Shown piece by piece: positions 14,132 to 62,934 of a stretch of 64,000 nucleotides of DNA. The stretch's first letter is position 1. Each line of letters starts with the position of its first letter. The notes beneath the pieces are model-generated. The model was given only the letters and a program-made list of their open reading frames with translations. It ran no database searches and was not told where the DNA came from. The DNA lies in the NCBI GenBank assembly GCA_017646625.1, contig JAGCMF010000033.1, forward strand, positions 5,237 through 69,236, written 5' to 3'. Source of the stretch: Alistipes sp. Lineage in GTDB: Bacteria > Bacteroidota > Bacteroidia > Bacteroidales > Rikenellaceae. The position numbers and the translations under genes are program-made.

Positions 14132-15508
14132 TTAGTTAAGCTGTATGCGGTATGCGGCACGCACGCTGAACTTTTTGGTCTTTTGTGGATCGAGGCACAC
14201 AATGCTATCTGTCATAAAGGCAACAACCTCAATTATATCTGTTGATGTCTCGTTCGATGACATGTAGTAGTCCTCGCTTATCGCTGTACCACCATTGTCT
14301 GTGATAGTCTTGTTAAATGCCTTCATCGCCTCGCTTTCATAGTTGTGTGTGCCACCACTTGCGGCATCCCACAACCAATGTAACTCTGTTGCTGATGGCA
14401 TGAACCATCCCTCGCCATGCTCGATGCACCACTTGAAGGCTGGGTAGTTGTTGATATCCTGACCACCGCGGTTAGGGTGGAAGAGGTCTTCTGTCATCCA
14501 TGCACCGTTACTAATATGGTTGTAACTGCAATCTACATTTATCGTAGACCACTGTAGGTACTCCTCATCCAATGATACAAGGTAGCACCATGTGTTGCCA
14601 TAATTATCGGTCTTGATGGCAAAGGCGATACCCTTTGAGCCACTCATCTCGTAGACCTTACCTATCTCGTAGTCACCAACAACAGCTGGGTCGTATACGT
14701 CGATGCTCACGGTGTTAGAACGCTGGTTGTTGTAGAGGGCATAGATGTCGTATGTGCCTACTGTTGTAGAGCTAAATACGCCACCCTCAATCACGTTACC
14801 CTTTGTATCCCTAATCTCGCATGTGGCAGTTACATCCTCCTCGCCGTAGAGAACAGTGAATGTTGCGCTATCTACGCCATCCGATGCGATACGATACTTC
14901 GATGTTGTGATTGTGAGACTCTTCTGTGTAGGAGTGTTGGCCACGGCGGTGATAGCAACCTGCTGCGAACGCTGCTCGCCATACTCCGCAACGAAGGTGT
15001 AGACACCCTCGGTCGTTGTGGTGAAGGTGTTACCCTCAAGGTTGGTATTCGACGAGAGCTCGATGATTGTTGACTCGGCAGTCTTATCCTGGCCATCGAC
15101 AGTTACGGTGAAGGTCACCTTATCTGTTCCATCGGCAGTAAACTCGGTCTTATCGACCTCAAGCTCCACGTTTGATGTTGTCGCGGTGGCAGTTATTGTC
15201 ACAGTCTCTGATGTGAAGTTCTTGTATGCTGCCTTAAAGCGGTACTCACCAGCAGTTGTTGTTTTGAAGGTGCTGCCAGCAAGTGTGCTATTGTCGTTGA
15301 GTACGATGATGCTTACATCCTTTGTTGTCACAACACCATCTACCGTAACCTCGAAGGTCACGCTGTCGGTGCCGTCAGCCACTATCTCAAGCTTATTGGC
15401 TGTGAGCCTCACCACTGCATCCTGCTGTGGCTGTTCCTCAACACCCTCGCAAGCGGTGATGCCTGCGAGGAGAGAGAACATGGCTAATATGTTAAAAAAC
15501 CTCTTCAT
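14132..15508 (-). CDS. Surface lipoprotein with three Ig-like (Big_1-like) repeats and a distinct C-terminal domain
   Basis: Lipobox ITAC; three repeats of ADG(T/V)DxxTF-V...TTTxG-Y; C-terminal YPAFKWC..HGEGWFMPSATEL resembles the DUF1566/FGE-like class. Confidence 0.7.
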   Translation of the reverse strand: MKRFFNILAMFSLLAGITACEGVEEQPQQDAVVRLTANKLEIVADGTDSVTFEVTVDGVVTTKDVSIIVLNDNSTLAGSTFKTTTAGEYRFKAAYKNFTSETVTITATATTSNVELEVDKTEFTADGTDKVTFTVTVDGQDKTAESTIIELSSNTNLEGNTFTTTTEGVYTFVAEYGEQRSQQVAITAVANTPTQKSLTITTSKYRIASDGVDSATFTVLYGEEDVTATCEIRDTKGNVIEGGVFSSTTVGTYDIYALYNNQRSNTVSIDVYDPAVVGDYEIGKVYEMSGSKGIAFAIKTDNYGNTWCYLVSLDEEYLQWSTINVDCSYNHISNGAWMTEDLFHPNRGGQDINNYPAFKWCIEHGEGWFMPSATELHWLWDAASGGTHNYESEAMKAFNKTITDNGGTAISEDYYMSSNETSTDIIEVVAFMTDSIVCLDPQKTKKFSVRAAYRIQLN

Positions 15509-15514
15509 ATGCCT

Positions 15515-17050
15515 TTACTCTGCTTTATCGAACAATGATGGCTCTACACGTACTGCAAACTGTGTAGGTGTATTCTCGTCATTGAGAGCCTCGAAGAAGA
15601 ATACATAGTCCTCCTTGTCTACTTCAGGGAATGATATCACAGCGCCATCGGCACTCTTTGCTGCTGCCAGTGTGTCAGCTGATACAGATGTGCGGAACAT
15701 GAAGAATGCCTGAATCTGTGACCAGTCGTTTGGATCCCAGAACTTTGCAAAGTCGTAGTTGTTCCAAAGCTGTGCACCAACCTTGAGGTCTGTAGCGTTA
15801 TCGTTAGTCTTAACGACAAACTGAACGTTGTACTTGAAGCCCTCCTTCTTGATAACAGGCTCTGATACCTCCAATGTAGCCTCTGCACCTGCTGTAGGAG
15901 CCTTTGTCTTGAACTCAATAGGCACATAGTTGTAGTCATAAACATCTGTTGGGTCTGTTGCTCCTGGATCCATGTAGAAGAGTACGAGGACATACTCGGA
16001 GTCGTTCGTCAATGGCTCGTAGTTGATTATTGTTGAAGCGCCTGTCTGGCCGATGTACTCGTTGATGAAGGTGTGGAAGTCGTAGCCCTGCTCCACGCCA
16101 ATGTTCTGCAATGCCCAGTAGCTACGCATAACGATGCTTGAGCTACCCTCTGATGCGAGTGTGCTGTCGTAGCTTGACTTTGTCCAGAAGTAGTATGCCC
16201 AGAATGACTCCTCACCCTTTGCAGGTACCACATCTACTGACATGCCCTTTGTTGTTGTCTTGAGGTTGCTGTAAGTGAACAATGAGTTAGGGTCTACTGG
16301 TGCAGCGTCAGGAGTAGAGAACTCGTAGCGGAAGAGACGTACGTCCTCCTCCATGTTGTGTACTGCCTCCCAGTTCTCGAAGTTAAAGGCAACAGCAATA
16401 TAGTTCATCTTTGGGCTCAATGAGCAGTTGATGGTTGTGTCGCCCCATGTGATATAGTCGCCACTATTTGGGTTCTCGATGATGTACTCAAAAATCTGGA
16501 AGTCATCGTTGTAGATGCCCATTGCGTCGAGCTCCATCTTTGTGATGACACGGAAGTAGTAGCGGTTTGCTGTTGAGCTTGGCTTTGCAACGGCTGTTGC
16601 AGAGTATGCAGTGATGTCGTTAACCTCGATGTCTACGTCGAACTCTACGCTTGGCACAGGCTCCTCTTTAGCTGTTGTGGTAACAACCTTTCTTACAACC
16701 TCGTCTGTAGCGCCATACATAAAGGCGATGACACAGTACTCTGTTTGCTCCTTGAGGTTGTCTGCGCTGATAATCTGCTCGCCATTGTACATGGTGAATG
16801 TCTGGAGGTAGTTATTGATGATTGCTGAATCATTCAAGCTCTCCACCTCACTGTTGAGAACGATGCCTGCGAAGTACTTTGCTGACTTGTCGGCAGGTGT
16901 GATAGTAGCCTTGATAGTGTTGCTATTTGCCACTACATCAGTGAGTGTAAGGTCTTTGTTGCCATCGACACCTGGCTTGTCGTTAGGCTGGCATCCCACC
17001 GCAAAAAGTGTTGCAAGCACGATGCTCAAGATAGAAAACAGTTTTCTCAT
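15515..17050 (-). CDS. Surface lipoprotein with FN3-like repeats, function unknown
   Basis: Lipobox FAVGC; repeated beta-sandwich segments (TITPADKSAKYF / VAKPSSTANRYY / DVVPAKGEESFW); co-transcribed with the previous lipoprotein. Confidence 0.65.
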   Translation of the reverse strand: MRKLFSILSIVLATLFAVGCQPNDKPGVDGNKDLTLTDVVANSNTIKATITPADKSAKYFAGIVLNSEVESLNDSAIINNYLQTFTMYNGEQIISADNLKEQTEYCVIAFMYGATDEVVRKVVTTTAKEEPVPSVEFDVDIEVNDITAYSATAVAKPSSTANRYYFRVITKMELDAMGIYNDDFQIFEYIIENPNSGDYITWGDTTINCSLSPKMNYIAVAFNFENWEAVHNMEEDVRLFRYEFSTPDAAPVDPNSLFTYSNLKTTTKGMSVDVVPAKGEESFWAYYFWTKSSYDSTLASEGSSSIVMRSYWALQNIGVEQGYDFHTFINEYIGQTGASTIINYEPLTNDSEYVLVLFYMDPGATDPTDVYDYNYVPIEFKTKAPTAGAEATLEVSEPVIKKEGFKYNVQFVVKTNDNATDLKVGAQLWNNYDFAKFWDPNDWSQIQAFFMFRTSVSADTLAAAKSADGAVISFPEVDKEDYVFFFEALNDENTPTQFAVRVEPSLFDKAE

Positions 17051-17318
17051 AGACTGAAAATAAATAAATTAAGTTAGTATTTCGTGTTGTTTGCGAGGCC
17101 CACGCCCCACTTATCTATATTTCTATGCGGGCAAATATACGAAAACATTTTCGTTCGGCAAAGCTATGGTCGCTAAATGTCATATTATTTATTATTTTTT
17201 TAACATTTATATTTGGTTTTTATCATATTTTTCTGTAAATTTGTCTACCCAATACAAAATAAATTGATTAAAGCCTCCGTTAATTGTTAAACAGGATAAG
17301 AATCAAGATGTAAAGACG

Positions 17319-17783
17319 ATGAATCAGAAGACCCAGCGCCTTTCGTACATTAGGAAAATTATTCGTGCGGAGTATATATCTTCGCAGGAAGAGCTTATAA
17401 CACGCCTCGAGGAGTGTGGTATTACCGTTACACAATCTACATTGTCGCGCGACCTAAAGTTTATGCATGTTGCCAAGGTGCCACACAAGGAGAAGGGGTA
17501 CATATACGTGTTGCCTAACGGTCAGCATGGTGACCATGCAGTGTCGTCAAATATAAGCGACAATATCCTCGATATCGCCTTCTCTCGCAATCTGTGTGTC
17601 ATCTCCACAAAGCCTGGCTATGCAAGTGCAATATCTGTGCCCATTGATAGCCGTGGTATAAGCGAGGTGCTCGGCACCATTGCTGGTGATAATACCATCC
17701 TTCTTGTGCTCCGCGAGGACTTTGATATGGATTTGCTCATGGGGCAGCTCTATGACCTTTTCCCTGCTTTGAAGCATTTGTAA
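17319..17783 (+). CDS. argR: Arginine repressor
   Basis: SQEEL...VTQSTLSRDL winged helix; GTIAGDNT. Confidence 0.93.
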   Translation: MNQKTQRLSYIRKIIRAEYISSQEELITRLEECGITVTQSTLSRDLKFMHVAKVPHKEKGYIYVLPNGQHGDHAVSSNISDNILDIAFSRNLCVISTKPGYASAISVPIDSRGISEVLGTIAGDNTILLVLREDFDMDLLMGQLYDLFPALKHL

Positions 17784-17810
17784 TAGACGGTAGTTTAGTA
17801 TACTATACAA

Positions 17811-17847
17811 ATAAGGGTTGTTCACCGATTAGGCGAACAACCCTTAT
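17811..17847. terminator. Bidirectional terminator between argR and the CI-like gene
   Basis: ATAAGGGTTGTTC-loop-GAACAACCCTTAT. Confidence 0.8.
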
Positions 17848-17864
17848 TTGTGCTTTGACACGAA

Positions 17865-18545
17865 CTATCCTATGGTGTGCATGCGTACCGATGCCTTGAT
17901 GAGGGCAATGGCACGTATACGACTTATCTCTATCTCTTTGTCGGCATGGTGCTGATTCTGGCTCACAAGGCGCACATAACCCTCATGCTCCGACTTCTGA
18001 ACATACTTCACGGTGATGTACTCCTCGCCATCGATGTCGATAGATAGTAGGTACATATCGCCCCAGAATACGTCACGCACGTCGTTAAGCTGCTTGTAGA
18101 GGATTATGTCTCCACTCTTGAGTAGCGGATACATCGAGTCGCCCACAACGTATATGGCACCATCGCACTTCGGTAGGTTGGGGATGTGGATGAAGTTGAC
18201 GGGCTTGGCTGTTGATGTCTCGGAGAAGAGGGGTACGAGTCCTGCTGTGCCCTCGATAGAGTATAGTGGCACACTCTGTAGTGGTAGCGACTTGTCTGTG
18301 CGGTGTGTGTAGGGCGTAAAATCTGGCTCTGCATTAAAGATTTTGCCCTTGCCTGTCTCTATCCACTCTGGGTTAACGTTAAAATCTTGAACAAAGATAT
18401 TCTTGTTGCGTGTCGATAGTCCCGCCTTGCCTGTCTCAATCATCGAGAGGGCAGCCTTTCCTATTCCAAGATGTTGAGCTAATTGCTCTTGCGTCATATT
18501 AAGCTCTTTTCGCATAAGTCTTATGCGTTCCCCAATTGTGCTCAT
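17865..18545 (-). CDS. CI/LexA-type repressor (XRE HTH + S24 peptidase)
   Basis: HTH RIRLMRKELNMTQEQLAQHLGIGKAALSMIETG; Ala-Gly site (EGTAGL), Ser in GDSM, Lys in TVKYV. Confidence 0.92.
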   Translation of the reverse strand: MSTIGERIRLMRKELNMTQEQLAQHLGIGKAALSMIETGKAGLSTRNKNIFVQDFNVNPEWIETGKGKIFNAEPDFTPYTHRTDKSLPLQSVPLYSIEGTAGLVPLFSETSTAKPVNFIHIPNLPKCDGAIYVVGDSMYPLLKSGDIILYKQLNDVRDVFWGDMYLLSIDIDGEEYITVKYVQKSEHEGYVRLVSQNQHHADKEIEISRIRAIALIKASVRMHTIG

Positions 18546-18574
18546 ATAAGAAAATGTTATATTAAATAATTGTA

Positions 18575-18626
18575 CAAATCTATTGACAAGGTAAATATTT
18601 GAATGTATATTTGCAGTGCAAAGTTA
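18575..18626. promoter_or_regulatory. Divergent/overlapping promoter switch between the repressor and the terminase operon
   Basis: TAnnTTTG boxes: rightward TATATTTG 18606-18613; leftward TAACTTTG 18626-18619 and TAGATTTG 18582-18575. Confidence 0.55.
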
Positions 18627-18692
18627 AGCAATTTATTTGACTGTGCAAATTTTGACCTTGTTTTTTAATAAATAAACCTACGAAAATCAATT

Positions 18693-19010
18693 ATGTACGA
18701 AACGACAACAAAAATTTACTTTAGGATTGCCGAAGACCTACTCGCGAGAATTGGTACAGGCGACTTCTTCTCTGGCGTGGTGATGGCGTTTGATGAGGAT
18801 GAGGGTGTGGAGTGTAGACTGATATGCACGGTGGTGGTGCATCGTGCCGAGAGAGTGAACGGCCGCTGGGGCATACGACCCATAGAACGTGTGCTGCCGG
18901 TGTGGTGGGAGATGAGGAGCTATCGAGATGGTGTGGAGATAGATAATGACTTCTCGTTCGGAGAGTTGGACTTAACGGGAGGCGATGATGTGTGGTGCTA
19001 TGAAGAGTAG
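18693..19010 (+). CDS. Hypothetical protein (105 aa) in the small-terminase position
   Basis: ORF follows an AT-rich leader; its stop overlaps the terL start (ATG 19000); no recognisable domain. Confidence 0.75.
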   Translation: MYETTTKIYFRIAEDLLARIGTGDFFSGVVMAFDEDEGVECRLICTVVVHRAERVNGRWGIRPIERVLPVWWEMRSYRDGVEIDNDFSFGELDLTGGDDVWCYEE

Positions 19011-20448
19011 TGGTGGTGAGGTTGTCTCAACTGCTGGGGTGGTGCCCACGTTTGAGGAGTTTGCGGGGTGTGTATATCCTTTTTTGGAGTTTACGCCATT
19101 TCATAAGATGTACTATGCCATTCTTGAGGCCTATGCTGTGGGGCGAATATCGAAGCTCATTGTCTCGGTGCCGCCACAGCATGGCAAGAGTGTGGGAGCA
19201 ACGACGCTACTGCCAGCCTATATGCTTGGCATTGACCCAAATATGCGTATTGCCATAGCCTCTTATTCGGGTACGTTGGCCTCGAAGTTTAACCGTCGTG
19301 TGCAGCGAATAATCGAGTCGAGGGAGTATGCCGAGATATTTCCCGAGACGACGATTAAGTGTGGCACGAAGCCCGCGGGTTATATACGCACGTCGGATGA
19401 GGTGGAGATAGTGGGGTATAAGGGTGAACTTATAAGTGTGGGACGTGAGGGCTCGCTGACAGGAAACCGTGTTGACTGCTTCATCCTTGATGACCTCTAT
19501 AAGGATGCTATGGAGGCGCAGTCACCTGTTGTGCGCGATAACTGTTGGGAGTGGTATACATCGGTAGTAAGAACGCGTATGCACAACACGTCGCGCGAAC
19601 TCATTGTCTTCACGCGCTGGCATGAGGATGACCTCATAGGTGTTCTCTGCCGCACCGAGCCCTGTAGGGAGCTTCGTTCCATGGCAGATATTGATGCTGT
19701 GCGCCCCGATGAGTGGCTTGTGTTAAACTTCGAGGCGCTAAAGTCCTCTCCACCTACGGATATAGATCCGCGAGGTGTGGGCGAGGCGTTGTGGCCCGAG
19801 CAGCAGAGTGTCGAGTTGCTGGAGGCGAAGCGCCGTCTCGACCCTGTGCGCTTTGAGGCTATGTATCAGGGACATCCCTCCTCGCGTGAGGGCCTGCTCT
19901 ATGGCGATGGCTTTAGGGAGTATGCCATGTTGCCGCGCGACATTGTCACGAGGGCGTGTTATGTCGACACGGCAGATGTGGGCGATGACTACCTATGTGC
20001 TGTTGCCTATGCTGTCGATACCGATGGGGTGATATATGTCACCGACGTGGTGTACTCGCGTGATGCTATGGAGCATACCGAGCCTTTGGTTGCGGCGATG
20101 CTTGTCAAGGAGGATGTAAGGCGTGCATATGTCGAGAGTAATAATGGTGGTAGGGGCTTTGCTCGTGCTCTCCAGCGTCTTGCGCCACGCATACGCGTAG
20201 AGTGGTTCCATCAGAGTGGTAATAAGGAGGCGCGCATACTCTCCAACTCCGCCACCGTGCTCCATATGGTGCGTATGCCCGAGGGGTGGGCTGTGCGCTG
20301 GCCAGAGTTTTATATGCACCTTACCACCTATCGCCGCCTCTTCCGTGCTAACCGTCATGACGACGCTGCCGATGTGCTCACGGGTATTGTGGAGAGGGAG
20401 GTGCATGACGAGGATTCGGGACGTTGGCAGAAGGCGCGGTTTATATAG
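19000..20448 (+). CDS. terL: Phage terminase large subunit (Terminase_6-like)
   Basis: Walker A VPPQHGKS, Walker B CFILDDLYKD, FTRW coupling motif, nuclease acidic motifs VDTADVGDD and HDDAAD; alternative start 18985. Confidence 0.92.
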   Translation: MKSSGGEVVSTAGVVPTFEEFAGCVYPFLEFTPFHKMYYAILEAYAVGRISKLIVSVPPQHGKSVGATTLLPAYMLGIDPNMRIAIASYSGTLASKFNRRVQRIIESREYAEIFPETTIKCGTKPAGYIRTSDEVEIVGYKGELISVGREGSLTGNRVDCFILDDLYKDAMEAQSPVVRDNCWEWYTSVVRTRMHNTSRELIVFTRWHEDDLIGVLCRTEPCRELRSMADIDAVRPDEWLVLNFEALKSSPPTDIDPRGVGEALWPEQQSVELLEAKRRLDPVRFEAMYQGHPSSREGLLYGDGFREYAMLPRDIVTRACYVDTADVGDDYLCAVAYAVDTDGVIYVTDVVYSRDAMEHTEPLVAAMLVKEDVRRAYVESNNGGRGFARALQRLAPRIRVEWFHQSGNKEARILSNSATVLHMVRMPEGWAVRWPEFYMHLTTYRRLFRANRHDDAADVLTGIVEREVHDEDSGRWQKARFI

Positions 20449-20709
20449 TCGGCCATAGGAATATCGTCTTTTTGGTAGGGCCATGTTGTGGGTGATATGT
20501 TCAAAATTGGCTTATTATCCATGTTGTGGTATTGCTGGGTTGTATGGTTGTAGTTGGCCTAAATATATGACCCAATGGTAAATTTTGGCGTGGAGTATTT
20601 ATGTGTATATGGTGCTTGTATATAGTGTGTTATGTGGGGTGCGGGGTGTGGGTTGTGAGAAAAAGATTAAAAAAAAACTATGAAGGCATATCTAATTAGG
20701 TTTTTTTTG

Positions 20710-20717
20710 TATCTTTG
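20710..20717 (+). promoter_or_regulatory. -7 promoter element of the pot operon
   Basis: TATCTTTG after a T-run, about 130 nt upstream of potA. Confidence 0.55.
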
Positions 20718-20846
20718 CGTACAATATATATACGCAGGTATATAGTTTGTAGATTTTTTGTATGCTTGGTATGCGGTGCAGATGGCTCGTCTATACTACA
20801 ATTCTGGGCATATGGGGTTTATTAACTACTAATACTTTTTTGCTTA

Positions 20847-22235
20847 ATGGTGAACTCAAATTACATCATCGAGATTTCGAATATCACCAAGACTTTTCCT
20901 GATAAGGTGGTCCTCGACGATGTCAGTTTGTCTGTACGAAAGGGTGAATTCCTTACCATTCTCGGACCTTCGGGTTGCGGTAAGACTACGTTGTTGCGCC
21001 TATTGGCGGGCTTTAACTCGGCTACGAGTGGCGAGATAACAATCGGTGGTGAGCAGATGACAGGCGTGCCTCCCCACCTCCGTCCAGTAAATACGGTATT
21101 CCAGCGTTATGCCCTCTTTCCCAATTACAATGTTTACGATAACATCGCCTTTGGTCTAAAGCTTCAGAAGGTCGATAAGCGCGAGATAGAGCAGCGTGTT
21201 AAGCGTGCCCTCAAGATGGTGGGCATGACCGACTATGAGCATCGCGATGTGCAGTCACTCTCGGGTGGCCAGCAGCAGCGTGTGGCCATAGCGCGTGCCA
21301 TTGTCAACCGCCCACAGGTGTTGCTTCTGGATGAGCCTCTGGCGGCCCTCGACCTCAAGATGCGTAAGGATATGCAGATGGAGCTCAAGGAGATGCACCG
21401 TTCTTTGGGCATCACCTTCGTCTATGTGACACACGACCAGGAGGAGGCACTCACACTCTCGGATACTATTGTTGTGATGAACGAGGGTAAGATACAGCAG
21501 ATAGGCTCACCTACGGATATATACAACGAGCCATGTAACGCCTTTGTTGCCGACTTCATCGGTGAGAGTAACATCTTGAATGCTGTGATGGTCAAGGATC
21601 GCCTTGTGCGCTTCATGGATAAGGAGTTTGAGTGTATTGATGAGGGCTTTGGTGAGAATACACCTGTAGATGTTGTTGTGCGCCCCGAGGATGTATATAT
21701 CATCCGTAATGCCGAGGCTGCGATGTTCCACGGCAAGGTGCGTTCGTGCATCTTCAAGGGTGTGCATTATGAGATGTTTGTCGACACACCTGATGGCTAT
21801 GAGATACAGATTCAGGACTACAACGCCTTCGAGCCTGGCACGGAGGTGGGCATGATGATTAAGCCTGCCGACATACATGTCATGCGCAAGGAGCGCACGG
21901 AGAACCATGTTGAGGGTACGCTTGTTGATGCTACACATGTCGAGATTCTTGGCGAGACCTTCGAGTGCTCGGCTGTTGAGGGCATCGAGGCGGGCGAGAG
22001 TGTAGATGTAGCCTTTGACTTTGCGGCCGTGGAACTCACCGACGACCCAGATGATGGTGTGTCGTGGGGTACTATACGCTTCATCCTCTATAAGGGTGAC
22101 CGCTACCACCTCACCGTGCGTACTGACGAGGGTGAGAACATCTATGTCGACACGCACGATGTGTGGGAGGACCTCGACGAGGTGGGCATTAAGATCTCGC
22201 CATGTGCACTACGTGTGACAAAGCTACATAAGTAG
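20847..22235 (+). CDS. potA: Spermidine/putrescine ABC transporter ATPase
   Basis: [40 protein letters not shown]; extended TOBE C-terminus. Confidence 0.95.
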
Positions 22236-27052: not shown

Positions 27053-28903
27053 TTACTCCATGGTGCTCCAATAGCCTTCAGCATCATTCCACCAGTCACC
27101 TCCATCAGTGATGATGAAGAGGTTTTCACCATCAGGGAATTCCATGGTCTCTGTGTACTCGCCGAAGTATGTACCTGGTGTGGTGCGACTGAACTTGATG
27201 TAGGTGTAATCCTCTGGCTTAACCACCTCGTAGATGCCGTCGTTGTTGCTATCAGTCATCTCGAATGAGTCAGGATTCATATCAAATATGCTATTCGATA
27301 CGAGGACCTTATATGTTGCATTGTCAGCCTTCCACTTGTTAGCGTCGAGGTAGATATACTCTACTGGCTCTGCCTCTGTAGTGATCTCTGCTGTAGCCTC
27401 TGATGCGATGTAGTCCTCATCAGTTGTTGTAGCAACAACCTTGATTACGTAAGTAGTCTCATACTCACCAACGAATGAGTACTCGAAGTCAGCAGTAGGA
27501 GTTACCACCTCACCGTTAAGAGTTACAATGTAGCTCTCTGCCTTCTCAACTGCCTTCCATGCGAATGTTACATCATTCTTCTTTGTGAGTGTAGCAGTGA
27601 TAGTAGGAGTTGCAAGGGCCTCTTTTGCCTCTGTAGTAATCTCTTTTGTAGCCTCTGATGCGCGGTAGTCGGTGTCAGCGGCAGGAGTAGCGATGACCTT
27701 AATAGTATATTTAGTATTATACTCGCCAACGAACTTGTACTCGTTAACAGCAGCTGTTTCGCCTCTTGTAGCTGTAAGATCTACAACCTCGTCGTTAATA
27801 ACTACTGTGTAGCTCTCTGCAAGCTCAACGTCGTTCCATGAGATTGTCACGTCGTTCTTGTTTTCGAGTGTAACAGCGATAACTGGAGTAGCGAGTGGAG
27901 TCTTTGCATCTACTACGTACTCTGGTGTATCGAAGTCGTCATCGATAGTGATCTCGATCTCTGTAGCTGTAGTGAGGAGGTTACCGATGATGGTTGTGAG
28001 GTGGTTACGCTTCAATGGAATCTGTGTGTTGAAGTCGTGAGAACGCACAGGACGACCATTCTGGTCAGTAACAGCCATAGTGAAGTTGATCTCCTGTGCA
28101 TCATCTCTAGCTGTGAAGATGTAGTCGGCAAAGAGAGTCTGGTACTCTTCAGAGGCGTCATAACCAGCAGAGTATGGAGCCGCCTTTGTGATGTCGTATG
28201 AGTATACTACAGTCTCAACGGTCTTCTCGGCCTGACCTGTGAGGGCATTCAATGACACGAATGTTGGGTGGTTGTAGAATGTTACATCAACCTTTGCAGG
28301 TGTTGTACCATTGTTAACCTCGTGAACATCCTTTGTGATAACGCGTACCTTACCGAAAGGACGTGTAAGGGTAAGAGAGTTTGTCAATGCGTTTCTAATC
28401 TCGATATCCTTCTGGATGAAGTATGCATCCATGCACTCGTGCATTACGGAGTTAGATGGCTCTTCGATGCGAGTGATGTTTGTCAAGCTTGCTGTGTTAT
28501 AGTGAAGGTCGGTGTTCTCGCCCTGCAAAACGAAGTCGGCCCAAACAACAAACTTGTAAACACGGTTAGGAACGAGACGAAGCTCGAAAGTTGTAGGCTG
28601 GTAGCTGTCGAATGTCTGTACCATGCGCTCCTTAACAGGAGTATCGAGATTCTCGTAGCCGGGTGTTACGTCATAAATCTCGAGCATGTAACGAAGGTCA
28701 TAAGTAGCCCACTCGTCATCGCTGAAATTGTCGATGGCGCCCTTGCCACTATTCATGCCTGTCTCGCCACGTGTTGTGCCCAACTCTGGAGCATCAACAT
28801 TGAGGCTAATCTCCACTGCGTCCTTGCCAGTGTAGTCGATGTCTTTCTGACATGACACAGCTGTCAGAGTCAACGCCATCAAAGCAAAAAATAACTTTTT
28901 CAT
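27053..28903 (-). CDS. Lipoprotein: DUF6562/Mfa-pilin-like N-domain, two FN3-like repeats, C-terminal CBM26-like module
   Basis: Lipobox TAVSC; LRYMLEIY, RLVPNRVYKFVVWADF, LTRPFGK, RNHLTTIIGNLLT; duplicated LATP-I...NDVT..W...AESY; tail YIYLDANKW...MTDSNNDGIYEV...IKFSR. Confidence 0.7.
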   Translation of the reverse strand: MKKLFFALMALTLTAVSCQKDIDYTGKDAVEISLNVDAPELGTTRGETGMNSGKGAIDNFSDDEWATYDLRYMLEIYDVTPGYENLDTPVKERMVQTFDSYQPTTFELRLVPNRVYKFVVWADFVLQGENTDLHYNTASLTNITRIEEPSNSVMHECMDAYFIQKDIEIRNALTNSLTLTRPFGKVRVITKDVHEVNNGTTPAKVDVTFYNHPTFVSLNALTGQAEKTVETVVYSYDITKAAPYSAGYDASEEYQTLFADYIFTARDDAQEINFTMAVTDQNGRPVRSHDFNTQIPLKRNHLTTIIGNLLTTATEIEITIDDDFDTPEYVVDAKTPLATPVIAVTLENKNDVTISWNDVELAESYTVVINDEVVDLTATRGETAAVNEYKFVGEYNTKYTIKVIATPAADTDYRASEATKEITTEAKEALATPTITATLTKKNDVTFAWKAVEKAESYIVTLNGEVVTPTADFEYSFVGEYETTYVIKVVATTTDEDYIASEATAEITTEAEPVEYIYLDANKWKADNATYKVLVSNSIFDMNPDSFEMTDSNNDGIYEVVKPEDYTYIKFSRTTPGTYFGEYTETMEFPDGENLFIITDGGDWWNDAEGYWSTME

Positions 28904-57286: not shown

Positions 57287-60200
57287 TTACTCAATAACAA
57301 CAGTGCACTGCTCCTTCATGCTACCACCCACGTAGTCAGCGATGTTTACAGTATTACCATCAAGAGTTGCAGTACAATTTGTGATTGTCAATGTCTTGCC
57401 AGCAGCCTCCAAATCAACGAAGTTTGTCTTACCAGAAACATAGTTGAATGTGCAGTTAACCAACTCAGTGTCAGCATAGATATTCAAGCCGTTGTATCTT
57501 GACTGGTCGCAACCAAATATACAACCCTCAAATGTCACCTTGCCATTACCACCATATGCGTTGAAACCATTAATCTCACAATTTCTAAAGATTACGGTAC
57601 CAGCCAGGTCATCGTAGTGGAAACCGCGGAAATCAGTTTTGATTACACAATTCTCGAAAATTGTTGTCTGACCCGCTGCCGCGTAGCACCAACGAAGAGC
57701 CTCACTACCTTCAAATGTGCAATTCTTGAACTCTCCATAGACATTACCTGATACAGCTATGTCATTCTCATTCTTAAATGTAGCACCAATAATAGTAGCA
57801 CCCTTGATATCCAAAGAAGATTTACCGGCGAACACTGTGCCCTCCTCGCAGATGATAGTCTGACCAGCCTTAACTGAAGCCGCAGGGAATGTATACCCAC
57901 CAGCTGCTACAGAAACTATCTTAGCATCTTTATCAAGTGCATCCTTAAGCTCCTCTGCGTTGCTCACAGATGTAGGACCAACAACAGTGATGTAAGTCTT
58001 ATCGTAGTTAGAGAGTGTGCTCTCAAGGTATGCCTTCATCTCGTTATTTACAACGTGGATAGTCATTGTAGGCACAGGAGCCGCCATATTTGTAAAGGAG
58101 TTATTCTCGATTGTGAACTCAGGAGAGAGAATCTTAATCTCGGTCAATGACTCACAATCACGGAATGCGTAAGTACCGATATAGTTAACAGATGCAGGAA
58201 TCTCAATAGAAACAAGACCTGTGTTGCGCAAAACATCCTTCTCGAGACGAGTTATGCCATCAGGAATGTTGATAGATGTCAAAGAAGTACACTCTGCGAA
58301 TGCACCCTCGCTAATTGTTGTAACGCTTTCTGGGATAGTTATGTTAGCAAGGTTTGAGCAAGACTGGAATACAGCAGGGCCAATCTCTGTAAGAGTGTTT
58401 GGCAATGCTACAGTCTCCAATTTAGTACACTTGCGGAATGTGCGGTTGCCAACAACCTCTATACCTTCTGCGACAGTTGCACTTGTCAATCCTGTTGAAT
58501 TCTCAACTACACCACGAACGGTAGTCGCCTCATCAGCAGCAGAGGTGATTACAACCTCACCATACTTTGCGATGTAAGCAACATCGTTCCACATAAACAA
58601 TGTAGCCTCGCCATTGTCGGTAGCAAGAGCAGTTGCTACATCAGCAGTGCTCTCTGTAACAGCAGTTACACCCTCAGCTTCCGCAGCATTGGCAATAGTT
58701 TCTGGCAATACATAGTAAATACCATCAGCTGCAATTGCCTTGTAACCAGTAGCAATGTATTTAGCAGCAGGTCTAGCAGAATATGTACCGCCTGTTACAG
58801 AGAATGTACCACCGTAGCCATAATCAGAGAGGTTGTCGTTGCCATAATAATTGCCACCGCTAAATTTGCCACCATTAACGTATACAGTACCTCTTGTTCT
58901 ATTGCAGATTACAACACCACCGCTGGTTGCAGCATGACGATGCTCGAAAGTACCACCATTAATAGTGAGAGTGTTGTTACCACCATCCTCTACATCTACA
59001 ACGTGTGATGTGAGGCTTCTTGCACCAATATCGTTGTTTACAAACGTACCTCCGTTAATAGTAGTCTCACCGCTGCCGCTTGCCTTTAGACAGCCGCGAT
59101 CTGCAGATACCTCTGTACCATCGTTGATAGTCATCTTACCAGATGATATAACTGCATATGCTGAATAACCACCATCAGCAAGTGGTGCACCCTTAATCTT
59201 AACACTCTCCAATACAAGCTCGCCTGTATTGTTGATTACAGCATCACCGTTTTCAGCGGTATTCTCGAGAGTACCACCAACGATAGTAAGAATACCATTG
59301 TTCTCGATAATAGCACCACTACCCTTTGCAAGTGCGCCAGTGATAGTCTTATCACCAAGGTTGATAACTACATTAGCACCCTCAGCAATCTCCAATGGCT
59401 GAGCCAATGTAATATCCTCAGTCAAAGTAACCTCGCCGCCGAACATAGCTGCGTAAGCAAGCTGCTCGGCGTTCTCGTCAGGCCAGTTCTCATTGCCGCC
59501 GAACTCACCACCATTCTCAACCTCAACCTTGATGTTGTTGCCATCAGTAAGAACGTTACCCTTGATAGTTGTCAAATAGTTGCGGTTAACAGCGATATCG
59601 GTGTTGAAGTTGTTAAACTTGATTAGGTCATTATTCTGATCATAAACATTGAACTCAAACTTAACAACATCACCCTCCTTAGCGAAGAAGTAGTCGGTAA
59701 AGAGTGTCATATCTGCACCATTCTGAACATCCTCATCGTATGACTTAATAGAGAAATTCTCGTGCTTGATATTACGATTCTGTGAATCGCCAATAGCACT
59801 ACCAGCGAAAGCGTTGAATGCGTTGTAGTGCTGAACTTTGTACTCTACAGTAGCTTTTGTAGGCATAATACCGAGATTGTTAAGAGCAACCATATCGGTA
59901 GTGATAACACGCAACTTGGCAAATGGACGTGTAAGGTTTACAGTGATGCCCTGTGAGCCGTTGAAGTTCTCAACAAGAAGAGTGCCGGTAAATGCGTCAC
60001 GTGTCTCATCCATTGCCTTCCACTCACCCTTAAGAGTGACGTTTCTAAGGTCGCTTGTGTCGTAGTGGTTATCAACATCAGACTCATTAGCAACAACATC
60101 GGCCCAAACAACAAACTGATAGTTACGATCTGGAACAAGGCGAACAGGGAATGCCACCTCTGTACCATCGCTGTACTTTACAAGACGTTCCTTTGAAGGC

Positions 60201-60427
60201 TCGCCCTTGTAGTAAACCTGAAGAATGTAACGCAATGTAGCATCACCATCAAGAACGCCATTGCTAAATAGTCCCTCTGCGCTGTTGGCACGGGTAGTCT
60301 CGGGAAGTGATACAGTGACAACAGTGTCAACCTCGCCACCGACGATAACGTCGAGACCCTCGGGCTCTGTCTGACATGATACCATACCGAGTACCAATGC
60401 CATCAAAGAAAAGATTTTTGCTTTCAT
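57287..60427 (-). CDS. Large lipoprotein: DUF6562/Mfa-pilin-like N-domain, beta-helix regions and BspA-type leucine-rich repeats
   Basis: Lipobox GMVSC; LRYILQVY, RLVPDRNYQFVVWADV, LTRPFAK, RNYLTTIKGNVLT; LRR IP.SVT.I...AF..C..L; Gly/Asn/Thr-rich beta-helix segments. Confidence 0.75.
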   Translation of the reverse strand: MKAKIFSLMALVLGMVSCQTEPEGLDVIVGGEVDTVVTVSLPETTRANSAEGLFSNGVLDGDATLRYILQVYYKGEPSKERLVKYSDGTEVAFPVRLVPDRNYQFVVWADVVANESDVDNHYDTSDLRNVTLKGEWKAMDETRDAFTGTLLVENFNGSQGITVNLTRPFAKLRVITTDMVALNNLGIMPTKATVEYKVQHYNAFNAFAGSAIGDSQNRNIKHENFSIKSYDEDVQNGADMTLFTDYFFAKEGDVVKFEFNVYDQNNDLIKFNNFNTDIAVNRNYLTTIKGNVLTDGNNIKVEVENGGEFGGNENWPDENAEQLAYAAMFGGEVTLTEDITLAQPLEIAEGANVVINLGDKTITGALAKGSGAIIENNGILTIVGGTLENTAENGDAVINNTGELVLESVKIKGAPLADGGYSAYAVISSGKMTINDGTEVSADRGCLKASGSGETTINGGTFVNNDIGARSLTSHVVDVEDGGNNTLTINGGTFEHRHAATSGGVVICNRTRGTVYVNGGKFSGGNYYGNDNLSDYGYGGTFSVTGGTYSARPAAKYIATGYKAIAADGIYYVLPETIANAAEAEGVTAVTESTADVATALATDNGEATLFMWNDVAYIAKYGEVVITSAADEATTVRGVVENSTGLTSATVAEGIEVVGNRTFRKCTKLETVALPNTLTEIGPAVFQSCSNLANITIPESVTTISEGAFAECTSLTSINIPDGITRLEKDVLRNTGLVSIEIPASVNYIGTYAFRDCESLTEIKILSPEFTIENNSFTNMAAPVPTMTIHVVNNEMKAYLESTLSNYDKTYITVVGPTSVSNAEELKDALDKDAKIVSVAAGGYTFPAASVKAGQTIICEEGTVFAGKSSLDIKGATIIGATFKNENDIAVSGNVYGEFKNCTFEGSEALRWCYAAAGQTTIFENCVIKTDFRGFHYDDLAGTVIFRNCEINGFNAYGGNGKVTFEGCIFGCDQSRYNGLNIYADTELVNCTFNYVSGKTNFVDLEAAGKTLTITNCTATLDGNTVNIADYVGGSMKEQCTVVIE

Positions 60428-60999: not shown

Positions 61000-62934
61000 T
61001 TAGTGGCGCTGCTGTCGGCGCTGCTCACGGTTGATGGCTACCTGCTCCTGCTGCTGGCGCAAGGCCTCCTCGTAGCGCTGCTGGAAGCGTGACTTCTTCT
61101 TTGGCTTATCCGAAAGAAGCTTCTCGCGCACCTTCTCGTCGTTAACAGAACGACGTATAGCAAACATGATAATCATGGTGAGAAGCTGTGATAGGAAGTA
61201 GTAGTAGCACAAGCCTGATGAGAAGCTATTCATCACGCATAGCATCATGATAGGCATGAAGTATACCATCATAAACTTCATCATGCCCGCACCTGGCTGG
61301 CCCGCAGTGGTTGCTGCCTGCTGCTTATAGGTGTAGAATGAGTATGCGAAGATTGAGAGTGTCATGAGGAGTGCAAAGAGACTCACGTGGTCGCCATAGA
61401 ATGGGATGTTGAAGGGCAACTGAAGAACGCTATCGTACGACGATAGGTCGTCAGCCCACAAGAAACTCTCGCCGCGAAGCTCGATGCTCGCAGGGAAGAA
61501 GCGGAACATAGCCCACAAGATAGGCATCTGGATGAGTAGTGGCAAGCAACCACCCATAGGGCTCACGCCAACCTTCTGGTATAGCTCCATCATGGCCTGC
61601 TGCTTCTTCATGGCATCGTCAGGGTTGGGGTACTTCTGGTTGATGGCCTCCATCTCGGGACGTATGGCACGCATCTTGGCTGTAGACATGTAGCTCTTAT
61701 ATGTCAATGGCAGGATGATGAGCTTAACGAGGATGGTGAGGATGAGGATGATAAGACCGAAGCTCAAACCACCACTCTTCAACCACTGGAACACAGGGAT
61801 GGTGATAATCTTGTTTATCCAGCCGATGAGCCAGCCACCCATAGGGATGATCTCCTCGAGGTGTGCATCCTGACCCATGAACTCCACGCCCTTCATCACC
61901 CTAAAGTCGTTAGGACCGTAGTAGAAGGCCATGGCATACTGCTCCTCGCCCGCGACATGTGGTATCGAGATACGTGCGTCGAACTCCTTAACAAAGCCCG
62001 CATTGCCATCCTTCGCCGTCTTGAAACTCAAGCTTGCGTCGAGAGCATCCTTTGTCATGAGCACTGATGAGAAGTACTGCTGCTTGAAGGCTATCCAGTT
62101 GAGACCCTCGATATCTTCGAGCTCACCATCAGCGTCGAGCTCGTCGGTATCCTCCTCTGCGTAGTAGAGGATGTTAGATGCCATAGACTCATTCTGGAAG
62201 CTACGTTCGTTGCGGTTAGAACGGTTGTTCCACACCATGACAATCTCGCTGCCACTCTTGAGCATGGCGTCGATGTTGTGCTGCTTGATGGTGAAGTCAA
62301 CGACATAGTCGCGGCTTGCATCACCTGTGTTATACACAGTATATACATACTCAACCCATGCATCAACATCTACGTCGAGGTGCATGGTGATGACGCTGTG
62401 GTCATCCATAGTCTCGATGTTAGTGTCGAAGATGTAGTCATTGGTGTTGAGTGCCTCGCTACCACCATTGCGGTGTAGCTCGAGACCCATTCTTGCCGAG
62501 TTGGGTGTTATGAGCTGCACGAGCTCCGTACGTTCGCCCTCGGCATAGCGCGTGTAGTTGTTCAAGGTTACATCTATGACCTTACCACCACGGCTGTCAA
62601 AGACGATGCTCATCAGGTCGTTGCGCACAGTGTCGAGCTGTGAGATGCCCTCACGGCGTGCGTAGAGGGTAGAACCGTGACGATACAACTCTGCATTAGC
62701 CCTCTCGGCAGCTGCTATAGAGTCTCTCATGTGGCGTTCCTCGGGAGTCATAGACTCCTCGGCAGCACGCTGTGCCTCGGCCTGTGCCACCTGTCGTGCC
62801 CTCTCTGCCTGTTCTACTCTCGCCTGCTCATCAAGGAACTGCTGCTGCTTATCCATCTCGTAGCTCTGGTAGAACGAGAAGCCTACGAACACGGCAATCA
62901 TCAATACGATACCAATAATAGTATTCTTATCCAT
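61000..62934 (-). CDS. yidC: Membrane protein insertase YidC
   Basis: WIAFKQQYF, YYGPND, FGLIILILTILVK, PMGGCLPLLIQMPIL, FLWADDLS. Confidence 0.95.
   Translation of the reverse strand: MDKNTIIGIVLMIAVFVGFSFYQSYEMDKQQQFLDEQARVEQAERARQVAQAEAQRAAEESMTPEERHMRDSIAAAERANAELYRHGSTLYARREGISQLDTVRNDLMSIVFDSRGGKVIDVTLNNYTRYAEGERTELVQLITPNSARMGLELHRNGGSEALNTNDYIFDTNIETMDDHSVITMHLDVDVDAWVEYVYTVYNTGDASRDYVVDFTIKQHNIDAMLKSGSEIVMVWNNRSNRNERSFQNESMASNILYYAEEDTDELDADGELEDIEGLNWIAFKQQYFSSVLMTKDALDASLSFKTAKDGNAGFVKEFDARISIPHVAGEEQYAMAFYYGPNDFRVMKGVEFMGQDAHLEEIIPMGGWLIGWINKIITIPVFQWLKSGGLSFGLIILILTILVKLIILPLTYKSYMSTAKMRAIRPEMEAINQKYPNPDDAMKKQQAMMELYQKVGVSPMGGCLPLLIQMPILWAMFRFFPASIELRGESFLWADDLSSYDSVLQLPFNIPFYGDHVSLFALLMTLSIFAYSFYTYKQQAATTAGQPGAGMMKFMMVYFMPIMMLCVMNSFSSGLCYYYFLSQLLTMIIMFAIRRSVNDEKVREKLLSDKPKKKSRFQQRYEEALRQQQEQVAINREQRRQQRH

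Follow-up and report, generated by a model that had tools for sequence, protein, structure and literature searches.

A repressor-orf105-terminase cassette retained in the chromosomes of Alistipes

Why would a bacterial chromosome retain an intact gene for a phage-type large terminase subunit (TerL), next to a phage-type repressor gene and enclosed by housekeeping genes? The question is raised by a stretch of 64,000 nucleotides of Alistipes sp. DNA (assembly GCA_017646625.1, contig JAGCMF010000033.1, positions 5,237 to 69,236 of the forward strand), hereinafter the window, a term that denotes this whole stretch, with positions counted from its first letter. Between argR and potA, the window contains a block of three genes, exactly where the first-pass annotation of the sequence had placed it: rep (17865-18545, minus strand), which encodes a 226-aa repressor with an XRE-type helix-turn-helix (HTH) and an S24 domain; orf105 (18693-19010, plus strand), which encodes a 105-aa protein that searches did not assign to any family; and terL (18985-20448, plus strand), which encodes a 487-aa TerL. 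The divergent control region between rep and orf105 (18546-18692) carries two overlapping opposed promoters. The annotation suggested that this trio may be a domesticated, vertically kept module, a proposal that the distribution of the genes, their substitution rates, the TerL tree and the flanks all failed to refute. We conclude that the cassette is, very probably, domesticated, under selection and for the most part vertically inherited. The function of the module is a separate matter, on which the readings given below are of graded strength.

Distribution, selection and inheritance

A TerL scan over one genome per GTDB species gave 149 relatives, and the best 80 of these 149 yielded 79 loci in 79 assemblies; the loci were chosen by TerL match, and the counts of distribution refer to carriers only. 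Among the genomes retrieved, the trio is present in 79 species-level genomes, a broad distribution that bears out the expectation that the module is not strain-specific. Almost all of these carriers bear the label Alistipes or Rikenellaceae, and their sources are the guts of yak, sheep, goat, cattle, buffalo, deer, rabbit, chicken, mouse and human. The cultured type strain Alistipes timonensis JC136 (= DSM 25383; locus L075) is among them, so the cassette is open to experiment.

The order of the trio, read by tblastn of rep, orf105 and terL, is constant: rep on one strand, orf105 and terL on the other, in 79 of 79 loci wherever the contig reaches. In the 76 loci with both genes, rep and orf105-terL stand head to head, with a gap of 123-256 bp and one exception, and in every locus orf105 comes first in the transcription unit of terL. 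All copies are intact, namely 76 of rep (223-226 aa), 78 of orf105 in the 78 loci that cover the gene (90-105 aa), and 80 of terL, which measure 465-563 aa by the chosen starts, except that one rep and one terL run off a contig end; the start codons of terL are uncertain, and both its length and the orf105/terL spacing depend on the start chosen. In the window, the candidate starts of terL (18985, 18988 and 19000) each overlap the end of orf105. The translational coupling that had been read from the sequence thus holds in the window, where the overlap is 11-26 nt, and is not conserved in the other loci, where the spacing ranges from -26 to about +330 nt. Identity to the window proteins is 69-85% for TerL, 68-91% for Rep, which is more conserved than ArgR, and 30-52% for orf105 (tblastn, 79 loci).

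The conserved unit consists of exactly the trio with its control region, because DNA homology between the window and the loci ends at the outer stop codons, that of rep (17860-17893) on one side and that of terL (20372-20449) on the other. Clustering of all open reading frames (ORFs) of at least 80 aa within 10 kb on either side of the trio, in the 79 loci and the window, gave the same picture: the only gene clusters common to 78-80 loci are rep, orf105 and terL, and the next most frequent, potA, occurs in 37 loci. The immediate neighbours vary by lineage and are housekeeping genes, for YidC, CTP synthase, ProRS, TsaD, GAPDH, KduI and M49 and S9 peptidases among others; as the domestication proposal anticipated, no relative has a prophage around the trio. 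Placement between argR and potA, to which the first-pass annotation drew attention, is real in the window and only one among many contexts across species. The borders of the cassette, 17865 and 20448, are themselves exact rearrangement breakpoints (loci L034, L020, L024 and L036-L049), with at least 10 different housekeeping neighbours on each side; in L034, the cassette is inverted between potA and argR. In one lineage, the genes for YidC and CTP synthase adjoin the trio, and in the window yidC lies about 40 kb away, at 61000-62934.

In the window, no att-like direct repeats flank the trio. Beside it lies a 20-bp inverted repeat at 17807-17851 (ACAAATAAGGGTTGTTCACC / GGCGAACAACCCTTATTTGT, 95% complementary), a hairpin that marks the left edge of the cassette and, placed between the convergent genes argR and rep, is likely to terminate transcription from both sides. 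The neighbours proper are ArgR, with both its N-terminal and C-terminal Arg_repressor domains, and a PotA-type ATP-binding cassette (ABC) ATPase followed by potBCD (Pfam). Ten further window proteins, including YidC, HtrA, LpxD, TamB and surface leucine-rich-repeat proteins, are all products of ordinary chromosomal genes, and there is no integrase, portal or capsid protein among them. No tRNA gene lies within 5 kb of the cassette, and an Rfam search of 16500-21500 gave no match. Across the trio loci, we found no integrase, terminal repeats, att site, replication gene, capsid-remodelling gene or plasmid context. The impression of host-like codon style stands for GC content and for GC at third codon positions (GC3), and less so for codon usage, in which terL ranks 39th and orf105 41st of 41 genes, at the edge of the window genes. 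The coding strand of orf105-terL (18693-20448) shows a strong skew of G over C (0.14-0.33 in 500-nt windows), which exceeds that of most of the surrounding 20 kb.

All three genes appear to be under purifying selection. The ratio of nonsynonymous to synonymous rates (dN/dS; Nei-Gojobori, pairs with dS below 1, many of them with dS close to saturation) is far from 1, as expected of a maintained module: 0.09 for rep, the lowest of the trio, 0.16 for terL and 0.33-0.37 for orf105, compared with 0.07 for potA, 0.06 for potB and 0.11 for potD by the same method. The marks of a decaying prophage, namely pseudogenes, strain-specific presence and relaxed selection, are not seen.

The origin of TerL was examined in distance-based trees and by comparison with phage proteins from INPHARED (cultured phages) and IMG/VR (pattern search). 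All 81 Alistipes TerLs, which share 69-99% identity with one another, fall into one clade of the neighbour-joining tree; this clade sits on a long stem and does not fall within the phage TerLs, in agreement with the initial proposal. The closest TerLs of cultured phages, those of the Bacteroides phages B40-8, B124-14 and their relatives, are 43-48% identical, and the closest from the IMG/VR pattern search reach at most 49%. Next to the B40-8-type phage TerL genes, no homologue of rep or orf105 was found, and no window ORF apart from terL resembles the genes that surround the TerL genes of these phages.

TerL and Rep diverge in step with the two major clades of their hosts, about as fast as ThiL, ArgR and TsaD. 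In the ruminant-type group, identity to the window is 85-96% for PotA, 75-84% for TerL, 81-89% for Rep, 78-83% for ArgR and 70-78% for ThiL; in the more distant group, it is 80-85% for TsaD, 69-75% for TerL and 68-84% for Rep. The distances of TerL and Rep are correlated (r=0.74), and so are those of TerL and PotA (Mantel r=0.37; none of 2000 permutations as high).

The three proteins and the control region

Rep matches the Pfam families HTH_19 (5e-13) and Peptidase_S24 (1e-12) and PHROG 4, "transcriptional repressor" (7e-35), and PADLOC-DB 2.0 returned only generic HTH matches for it. It is a CI/LexA-like protein and has the full architecture of the S24 self-cleaving repressors of the CI/LexA type: an XRE-type HTH at the N-terminus is joined to a self-cleaving S24 peptidase domain at the C-terminus, with an Ala-Gly cleavage site (A101-G102) and a Ser/Lys dyad (Ser137 and Lys180). 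Across 76 orthologues, 119 of the 226 positions of Rep are invariant, including A101-G102, GDS137MYP and K180.

TerL matches PHROG 38, "terminase large subunit" (4e-92), Terminase_6N/6C and TIGR01630. All the motifs that the first-pass annotation had read from the translation are in place: in the ATPase, which the Terminase_6N match covers at residues 62-226, Walker A (P63-PQHGKS69; residues 63-69), Walker B (FILDD170; 166-170) and F209-TRWHEDD (209-216); and in the RNase H-like nuclease, D328/D331, E384 and D460/D463, with the matches to Terminase_6C, T7 RNaseH-like and TIGR01630 at residues 326-470. Counting as invariant a position with the same residue in at least 97% of sequences, 220 of the 487 positions are invariant in 80 orthologues; these include all catalytic motifs and the stretches PPQHGKS, FILDDLYKD, FTRWHE, DTAD, ESNNGGRGFAR and the D460/D463 pair. 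A basic C-terminal tail, (R/K)-F-(I/L), ends about 61 of 81 sequences, and phage TerLs have similar basic tails. The protein therefore has the ATPase and the nuclease of a phage large terminase and, as far as 10 kb on either side in the 79 genomes and the whole window show, lacks the accompanying packaging and head module (small terminase, portal, capsid): judged by its sequence, it is a terminase, yet one that lies outside any phage genome. No PADLOC-DB 2.0 model of a defence family matched either TerL or orf105.

Two side observations concern terL. In the clade of Alistipes from human and mouse guts, TerL has an N-terminal extension of 100-270 aa, rich in S, P and G and made of tandem repeats (L071:5588-6582, L055:9410-10000, proteins P0287-P0397; Tandem Repeats Finder periods of 12-87 nt); it behaves as an intragenic variable-number repeat, given that the lengths of the whole protein step by 5 aa (616, 621, 626, 631, 636 and 641). 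In the IMG/VR contig L153 (IMGVR_UViG_3300029592_000166), terL is cut just after the Walker B codons (...FVLDDLY; junction at about 9049). About 9 kb of foreign DNA, with a tyrosine integrase gene at 1062-2300, adjoins the break (L153:1-9060), and rep and orf105 are intact. It seems that an integrative element inserted into this terL, and the integrase it carries is the only one seen at any trio locus.

The product of orf105 had no match in Pfam, PHROGs, PADLOC or NCBIfam, and 75 family members had none in PADLOC, NCBIfam or Pfam. Ten of its 105 residues are invariant, including Y9, G28, P69, W71, W72, D86 and F87. The family is uniformly acidic, with an isoelectric point (pI) of 4.1-5.2 (median 4.5) and a net charge of -4 to -17. 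When 1.84 billion representative proteins were searched with a profile of orf105, 272 cluster representatives emerged; the 150 representatives among the matches listed are nearly all 90-130 aa long, and all match an orf105 of the loci, at 31-100% identity. An AlphaFold2 model built from 75 sequences (predicted local distance difference test (pLDDT) score 89.5, predicted template modelling (TM) score 0.79) predicts an N-terminal helix packed on an antiparallel sheet of 3-4 strands. Foldseek searches found no clear relative in the PDB (best E=0.32, with the model of pLDDT 89.5) or in BFVD (best E=0.08, with an earlier model of lower confidence), with TM scores of at most 0.38. Neither model lends support, in either database, to the idea that orf105 is a small terminase, a Cro or a Xis protein; because the family is uniformly acidic and has no Foldseek relative, it cannot be recognised as a small terminase, a Cro protein or an excisionase. 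We consider it more likely to be a protein-binding partner, a regulator or a DNA mimic. With a confidently predicted fold for which no structural relative was found, orf105 defines a new small protein family.

The control region was compared across 75 rep-orf105 intergenic regions, which were aligned on an invariant block. The anchored alignment and its information content point to two predicted Bacteroidetes-type promoters that are conserved, overlapping and opposed; the Bacteroidetes promoter consensus is -33 TTTG / -7 TAnnTTTG. The rightward promoter, P(orf105-terL), consists of TTGACA at 18583-18588 and TATATTTG at 18606-18613, and a sigma-70-like site at 18583-18611 scores 11 of 12. The leftward promoter, P(rep), has the -7 box TAACTTTG, which reads as CAAAGTTA on the plus strand at 18619-18626, and a -33 TTTG, which reads as CAAA on the plus strand at 18646-18649. 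The two -7 boxes face each other 5 bp apart and together form the dyad TTTGCAgTGCAAA at 18610-18622. Given this arrangement, the rep and orf105 transcripts are predicted to start within each other's promoter, and therefore RNA polymerase at one promoter should exclude it from the other. The TTTG-N5-CAAA dyad is present in 65 of the 75 control regions and nowhere else in the 64-kb window, and of the full opposed-box pattern there are 137 instances, both strands counted, in the intergenic regions of the trios and a single one in the rest of 1.37 Mb of Alistipes DNA. The operator patterns of the non-canonical LexA of Bacteroidetes (CTAA-N5-TTAG, GGA-N5-TCC and the variant TTAC-N5-GTAA) and that of Francisella FddR (GTG-N11-CAC) were found in none of the 75 control regions.

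Two other candidate signals were set aside. A conserved 19-mer on the rep side, CAAAGTTAARCAATTTATT, was considered as an operator and is also present in 31 unrelated IMG/VR contigs; it is a common strong promoter of the Bacteroidales type, because in most contigs inspected it lies upstream of start codons on the other strand. The rep promoter and the DNA upstream of argR also share an inverted match of 15 nt, which is a chance likeness in AT-rich sequence. Some 17 of the IMG/VR contigs with the 19-mer, unrelated to the trio (L123, L127, L130, L135-L137, L140, L141, L143, L144, L146, L149-L152 and L154), are 11.1-11.8 kb long and bear it close to one end, at a distance of about 70-450 nt, where it lies upstream of a gene whose product begins with MKTT; these contigs of similar length may represent a family of small complete elements.

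Public metatranscriptomes provide a limited view of expression. In one run, genes and spacers are evenly covered, which suggests DNA carry-over; in another, the argR and potA contigs are deeper than the trio contigs. Short contigs from four mouse-gut runs match an A. timonensis-like strain at 99-100% identity over rep, the spacer, orf105 and terL, and their depth is low and equal to that of neighbouring genes. A search for data from isolates, treated or untreated, gave no result.

Elsewhere in the window, two adjacent lipoprotein-like genes (14132-17050, minus strand) lie upstream of argR and encode proteins of 458 aa, with weak Big_1 repeats, and 511 aa, with no Pfam family. They are probably fast-evolving surface proteins, given that they are 36-55% identical between species while their neighbours are 70-90% identical. 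At 57287-60427 (minus strand), a gene of unusual composition (GC 44% and GC3 40%, where the window averages 51% and 60%) encodes a BspA-type leucine-rich-repeat protein of 1046 aa that has a DUF6562 domain, and a DUF6562 paralogue is encoded at 27053-28903 (minus strand).

A proposed damage-induced packaging motor and its rivals

The features of the cassette can be assembled into a tentative scenario. An ancestor of Alistipes would have kept three genes from a relative of the B40-8-type siphoviruses, or from the lysogeny switch of such a phage, and these would have been inherited as a block. As the anatomy of the control region suggests, Rep bound to the overlapping opposed promoters would keep orf105-terL off and set its own level. 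DNA damage, or other events that give rise to RecA filaments, among them prophage induction and some infections, would then stimulate self-cleavage of Rep between A101 and G102, as the invariance of the catalytic residues would lead one to expect, and orf105 and TerL would be produced together. That DNA damage switches the cassette through Rep seems probable from the sequence; repression by Rep, cleavage upon damage and joint production of the two proteins, taken as one chain, have a somewhat better than even chance of being correct.

The later steps are more conjectural. TerL would act as an ATP-driven DNA translocase and nuclease and would package DNA into procapsids encoded elsewhere, with orf105 as its acidic partner or regulator and not as a DNA-binding small terminase. 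The capsids could come from co-resident or infecting Bacteroidales siphoviruses, in which case the piracy would divert them to host DNA and cut phage yield, or else from an unlinked GTA-like set of head genes, by analogy with gene transfer agents (GTAs). A packaging role is favoured because the ATPase, the nuclease and the basic C-terminal tail are all under purifying selection; still, action on capsids encoded elsewhere is a proposal that we advance with considerable reserve. The more specific version, "counter-piracy", in which damage or prophage induction would lead Rep to cleave itself and TerL, aided by orf105, to dock on phage procapsids and fill them with host DNA, we regard as doubtful. 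If true, it would lower phage yield and turn the phage into a transducing vehicle, and the motor would be a host-encoded mirror image of the phage-inducible chromosomal islands (PICIs) or a GTA without capsid genes of its own.

A number of observations weigh against this scenario or parts of it. Searches for structural genes, which covered 10 kb on either side of the trio in the 79 genomes together with the 64-kb window, found no portal or capsid gene. The acidic orf105 is unlike any small terminase. Many terminases bind the small subunit through the N-terminus of TerL, and in the Alistipes proteins the region before the SFxDFA...YPF motif is very variable in length and sequence. At 48% identity to known phage TerLs, the Alistipes protein may fail to dock on their portals. 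When an operator of Rep was sought by dyad symmetry in the 75 aligned regions, only the opposed -7 boxes proved symmetric, and coverage of the trio in public metatranscriptomes is low and ambiguous. As to inheritance, the expected congruence of TerL with its hosts is clear between the two major clades and weak inside the ruminant clade, where the TerL-host distance correlation is 0.14-0.26 (Spearman) compared with 0.61 for PotA-PotB. In addition, two complete trios lie on a single contig, L010, separated by 6 kb (L010:4-2562 and L010:7604-10139), on either side of a group of Mla-like ABC and GAPDH genes; the two TerLs are 74% identical and belong to different subclades, one being 98.9% identical to that of L005 and the other 94.6% identical to that of L050, so that either an old paralogy or a chimeric contig is indicated. 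Because of the weak correlation in the ruminant clade and the double trio, we take inheritance to be mainly vertical, with old paralogy or exchange within the genus.

The absence of structural genes anywhere near the trio also fits a TerL that works without capsids, cutting or translocating chromosomal or invading DNA after damage, either in a suicidal, abortive-infection-like role or in DNA repair or processing, with the acidic orf105 serving to inhibit it, to mimic DNA or to lend it specificity. Isolated TerLs, such as gp17 of phage T4, are nucleases that can be toxic on overproduction, the S24 switch would link expression to DNA damage, and an acidic (pI about 4.5), fast-evolving orf105 is what one would expect of an inhibitor or sensor. 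A simple toxin nuclease, however, needs neither an ATPase motor nor a portal-type tail, and here the whole motor and the tail are conserved like the nuclease; moreover, no PADLOC model matched, and the cassette is chromosomal and present in every retrieved genome, whereas most defence genes spread patchily. We consider direct action on DNA a possibility, albeit a rather improbable one. Conservation over the retrieved genomes, purifying selection and a stress-linked regulator, which are hallmarks of GTAs, together with the retention of the catalytic residues and the C-terminus that a functional packaging motor has, are compatible with the trio being the terminase part of a GTA whose head, tail and lysis genes occupy other, equally conserved Alistipes loci. 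Described GTAs keep the terminase together with the head genes, though, and here no structural gene was found in 1.37 Mb around the trios, nor was a small-terminase-like partner; the literature searched describes no GTA in Bacteroidota. This makes a GTA quite unlikely.

Other readings put the weight on Rep or on selfish persistence. Rep could mainly be the SOS-type master regulator of Alistipes, in place of the LexA-like regulators that Bacteroidales lack, with orf105-terL as the ancestral local target of a wider regulon, an option compatible with all the others. Rep is the most conserved protein of the trio (dN/dS 0.09; 68-91% identity), above ArgR, it shares the XRE+S24 architecture with the non-canonical LexA of Bacteroidetes, which is reported to be absent from Bacteroidales (PMC8565304), and in the model proposed for FddR regulons grow from self-contained units (PMC13148647). 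On the other side of the ledger, the known operators CTAA-N5-TTAG, GGA-N5-TCC and GTG-N11-CAC are missing from all 75 control regions, the dyad occurs in the window at the trio only, and the dual-promoter pattern appears just once outside the trio regions in 1.37 Mb, which is a weak test; on balance, a wide regulon is unlikely. A selfish addiction module, with TerL as the toxin, orf105 as the antitoxin and Rep as the controller, would be kept because its loss kills the cell. Such a module would account for a compact unit that is self-contained, regulates itself and has exact borders, for a fast-evolving acidic small protein that precedes a nuclease and for the duplicated divergent copy on one contig, but it leaves the conservation of the motor ATPase unexplained; the cassette is mostly single-copy, signs of mobility (integrase, terminal repeats, plasmid context) were not found, and one strain survives with a terL disrupted by an element while rep and orf105 are still there. 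We deem addiction very unlikely. The first look suggests a leftover, and every recognisable part of the cassette is phage-derived, but an ordinary recent prophage remnant or a PICI-like satellite is hard to reconcile with intact copies in 79 species at dN/dS well under 1, housekeeping flanks, a TerL outside the phage clades and the lack of an integrase, att site, replication gene or capsid-remodelling gene; nor is the DNA near-identical across species, the identity of the cassette being 67-82%. A remnant or satellite is therefore highly improbable. The preferred account is a domesticated, largely vertically kept cassette with a probable damage-sensitive switch, in which the motor may serve capsids encoded elsewhere.

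The cassette among known systems

The literature searched on domesticated or orphan terminases, on terminase-based defence and on GTAs of Bacteroidetes contains no account of the cassette beyond a remark on a 2012 tree, in which "Alistipes spp." sequences adjoin the terminase of phage B124-14 (PMC3338817). Earlier domesticated phage parts are either whole machines, such as GTAs and tailocins, or mobile parasites, such as PICIs, and in the same literature we found no description of a lone intact TerL that is under selection in multiple species with a damage-sensitive switch of its own. If TerL is directed at capsids, the cassette would represent a new route by which a host exploits or blocks phages, and possibly a hidden path by which genes move in an abundant gut genus; direct action on DNA would make it a new kind of DNA-damage effector. 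Either way, the cassette would offer a first handle on DNA-damage signalling in Bacteroidales, which have no known LexA-like regulator.

Among phage proteins, the nearest relatives of the Alistipes TerL are those of B40-8, B124-14 and the "Paboviridae" phages of Parabacteroides and Alistipes, with 43-48% identity over 93-97% of the length (48% to B40-8), the same Terminase_6N/6C architecture and a basic C-terminal tail. The phage gene lies beside head and portal genes, in contrast to the Alistipes gene, which stands alone with rep and orf105. With GTAs and PICIs, the cassette shares the idea of a phage packaging function that is kept by, or parasitises, the host, as well as the ideas of a stress link and of capsid redirection. 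It differs from GTAs, whose terminase is accompanied by head and tail genes, in that none lie within 10 kb on either side here, and from PICIs, which have an integrase, att sites, replication genes and, usually, small terminase or capsid-remodelling genes, in that none of these were found.

The switch resembles the non-canonical LexA of Bacteroidetes in its XRE-type HTH and its S24 domain with Ala-Gly, Ser and Lys, in its chromosomal location and in its probable origin from a phage repressor, and departs from it in that the operators of this LexA occur in none of the 75 Alistipes control regions and no DNA-repair regulon is evident. According to Sanchez-Osuna et al. (2021), both groups of non-canonical LexA orthologues are absent from Bacteroidales (PMC8565304).

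The closest precedent is the Francisella FddR unit, in which a phage S24 repressor was co-opted genus-wide together with a divergent target, and which has been proposed as a seed of SOS-like networks; DNA-damage induction and operator binding of FddR have been demonstrated (PMC13148647). Differences are apparent in the cargo, which in Alistipes comprises a complete terminase and a new small protein and in Francisella an uncharacterised gene or dinB, in the operator GTG-N11-CAC, which is present in 0 of 75 Alistipes regions, and in the switch itself, which in Alistipes is a prediction from the sequence. In both cases, a phage-type S24 repressor is kept genus-wide, head to head with its presumed target or targets, in a genus without a working canonical LexA, and in both the unit is self-contained, changes its genomic surroundings and occasionally has paralogues. 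The likeness deserves notice, since other Bacteroidetes have phage-derived substitutes for LexA that are reported to be absent from Bacteroidales (PMC8565304). Rep might be the SOS-type regulator that had been missing for a genus of this order.

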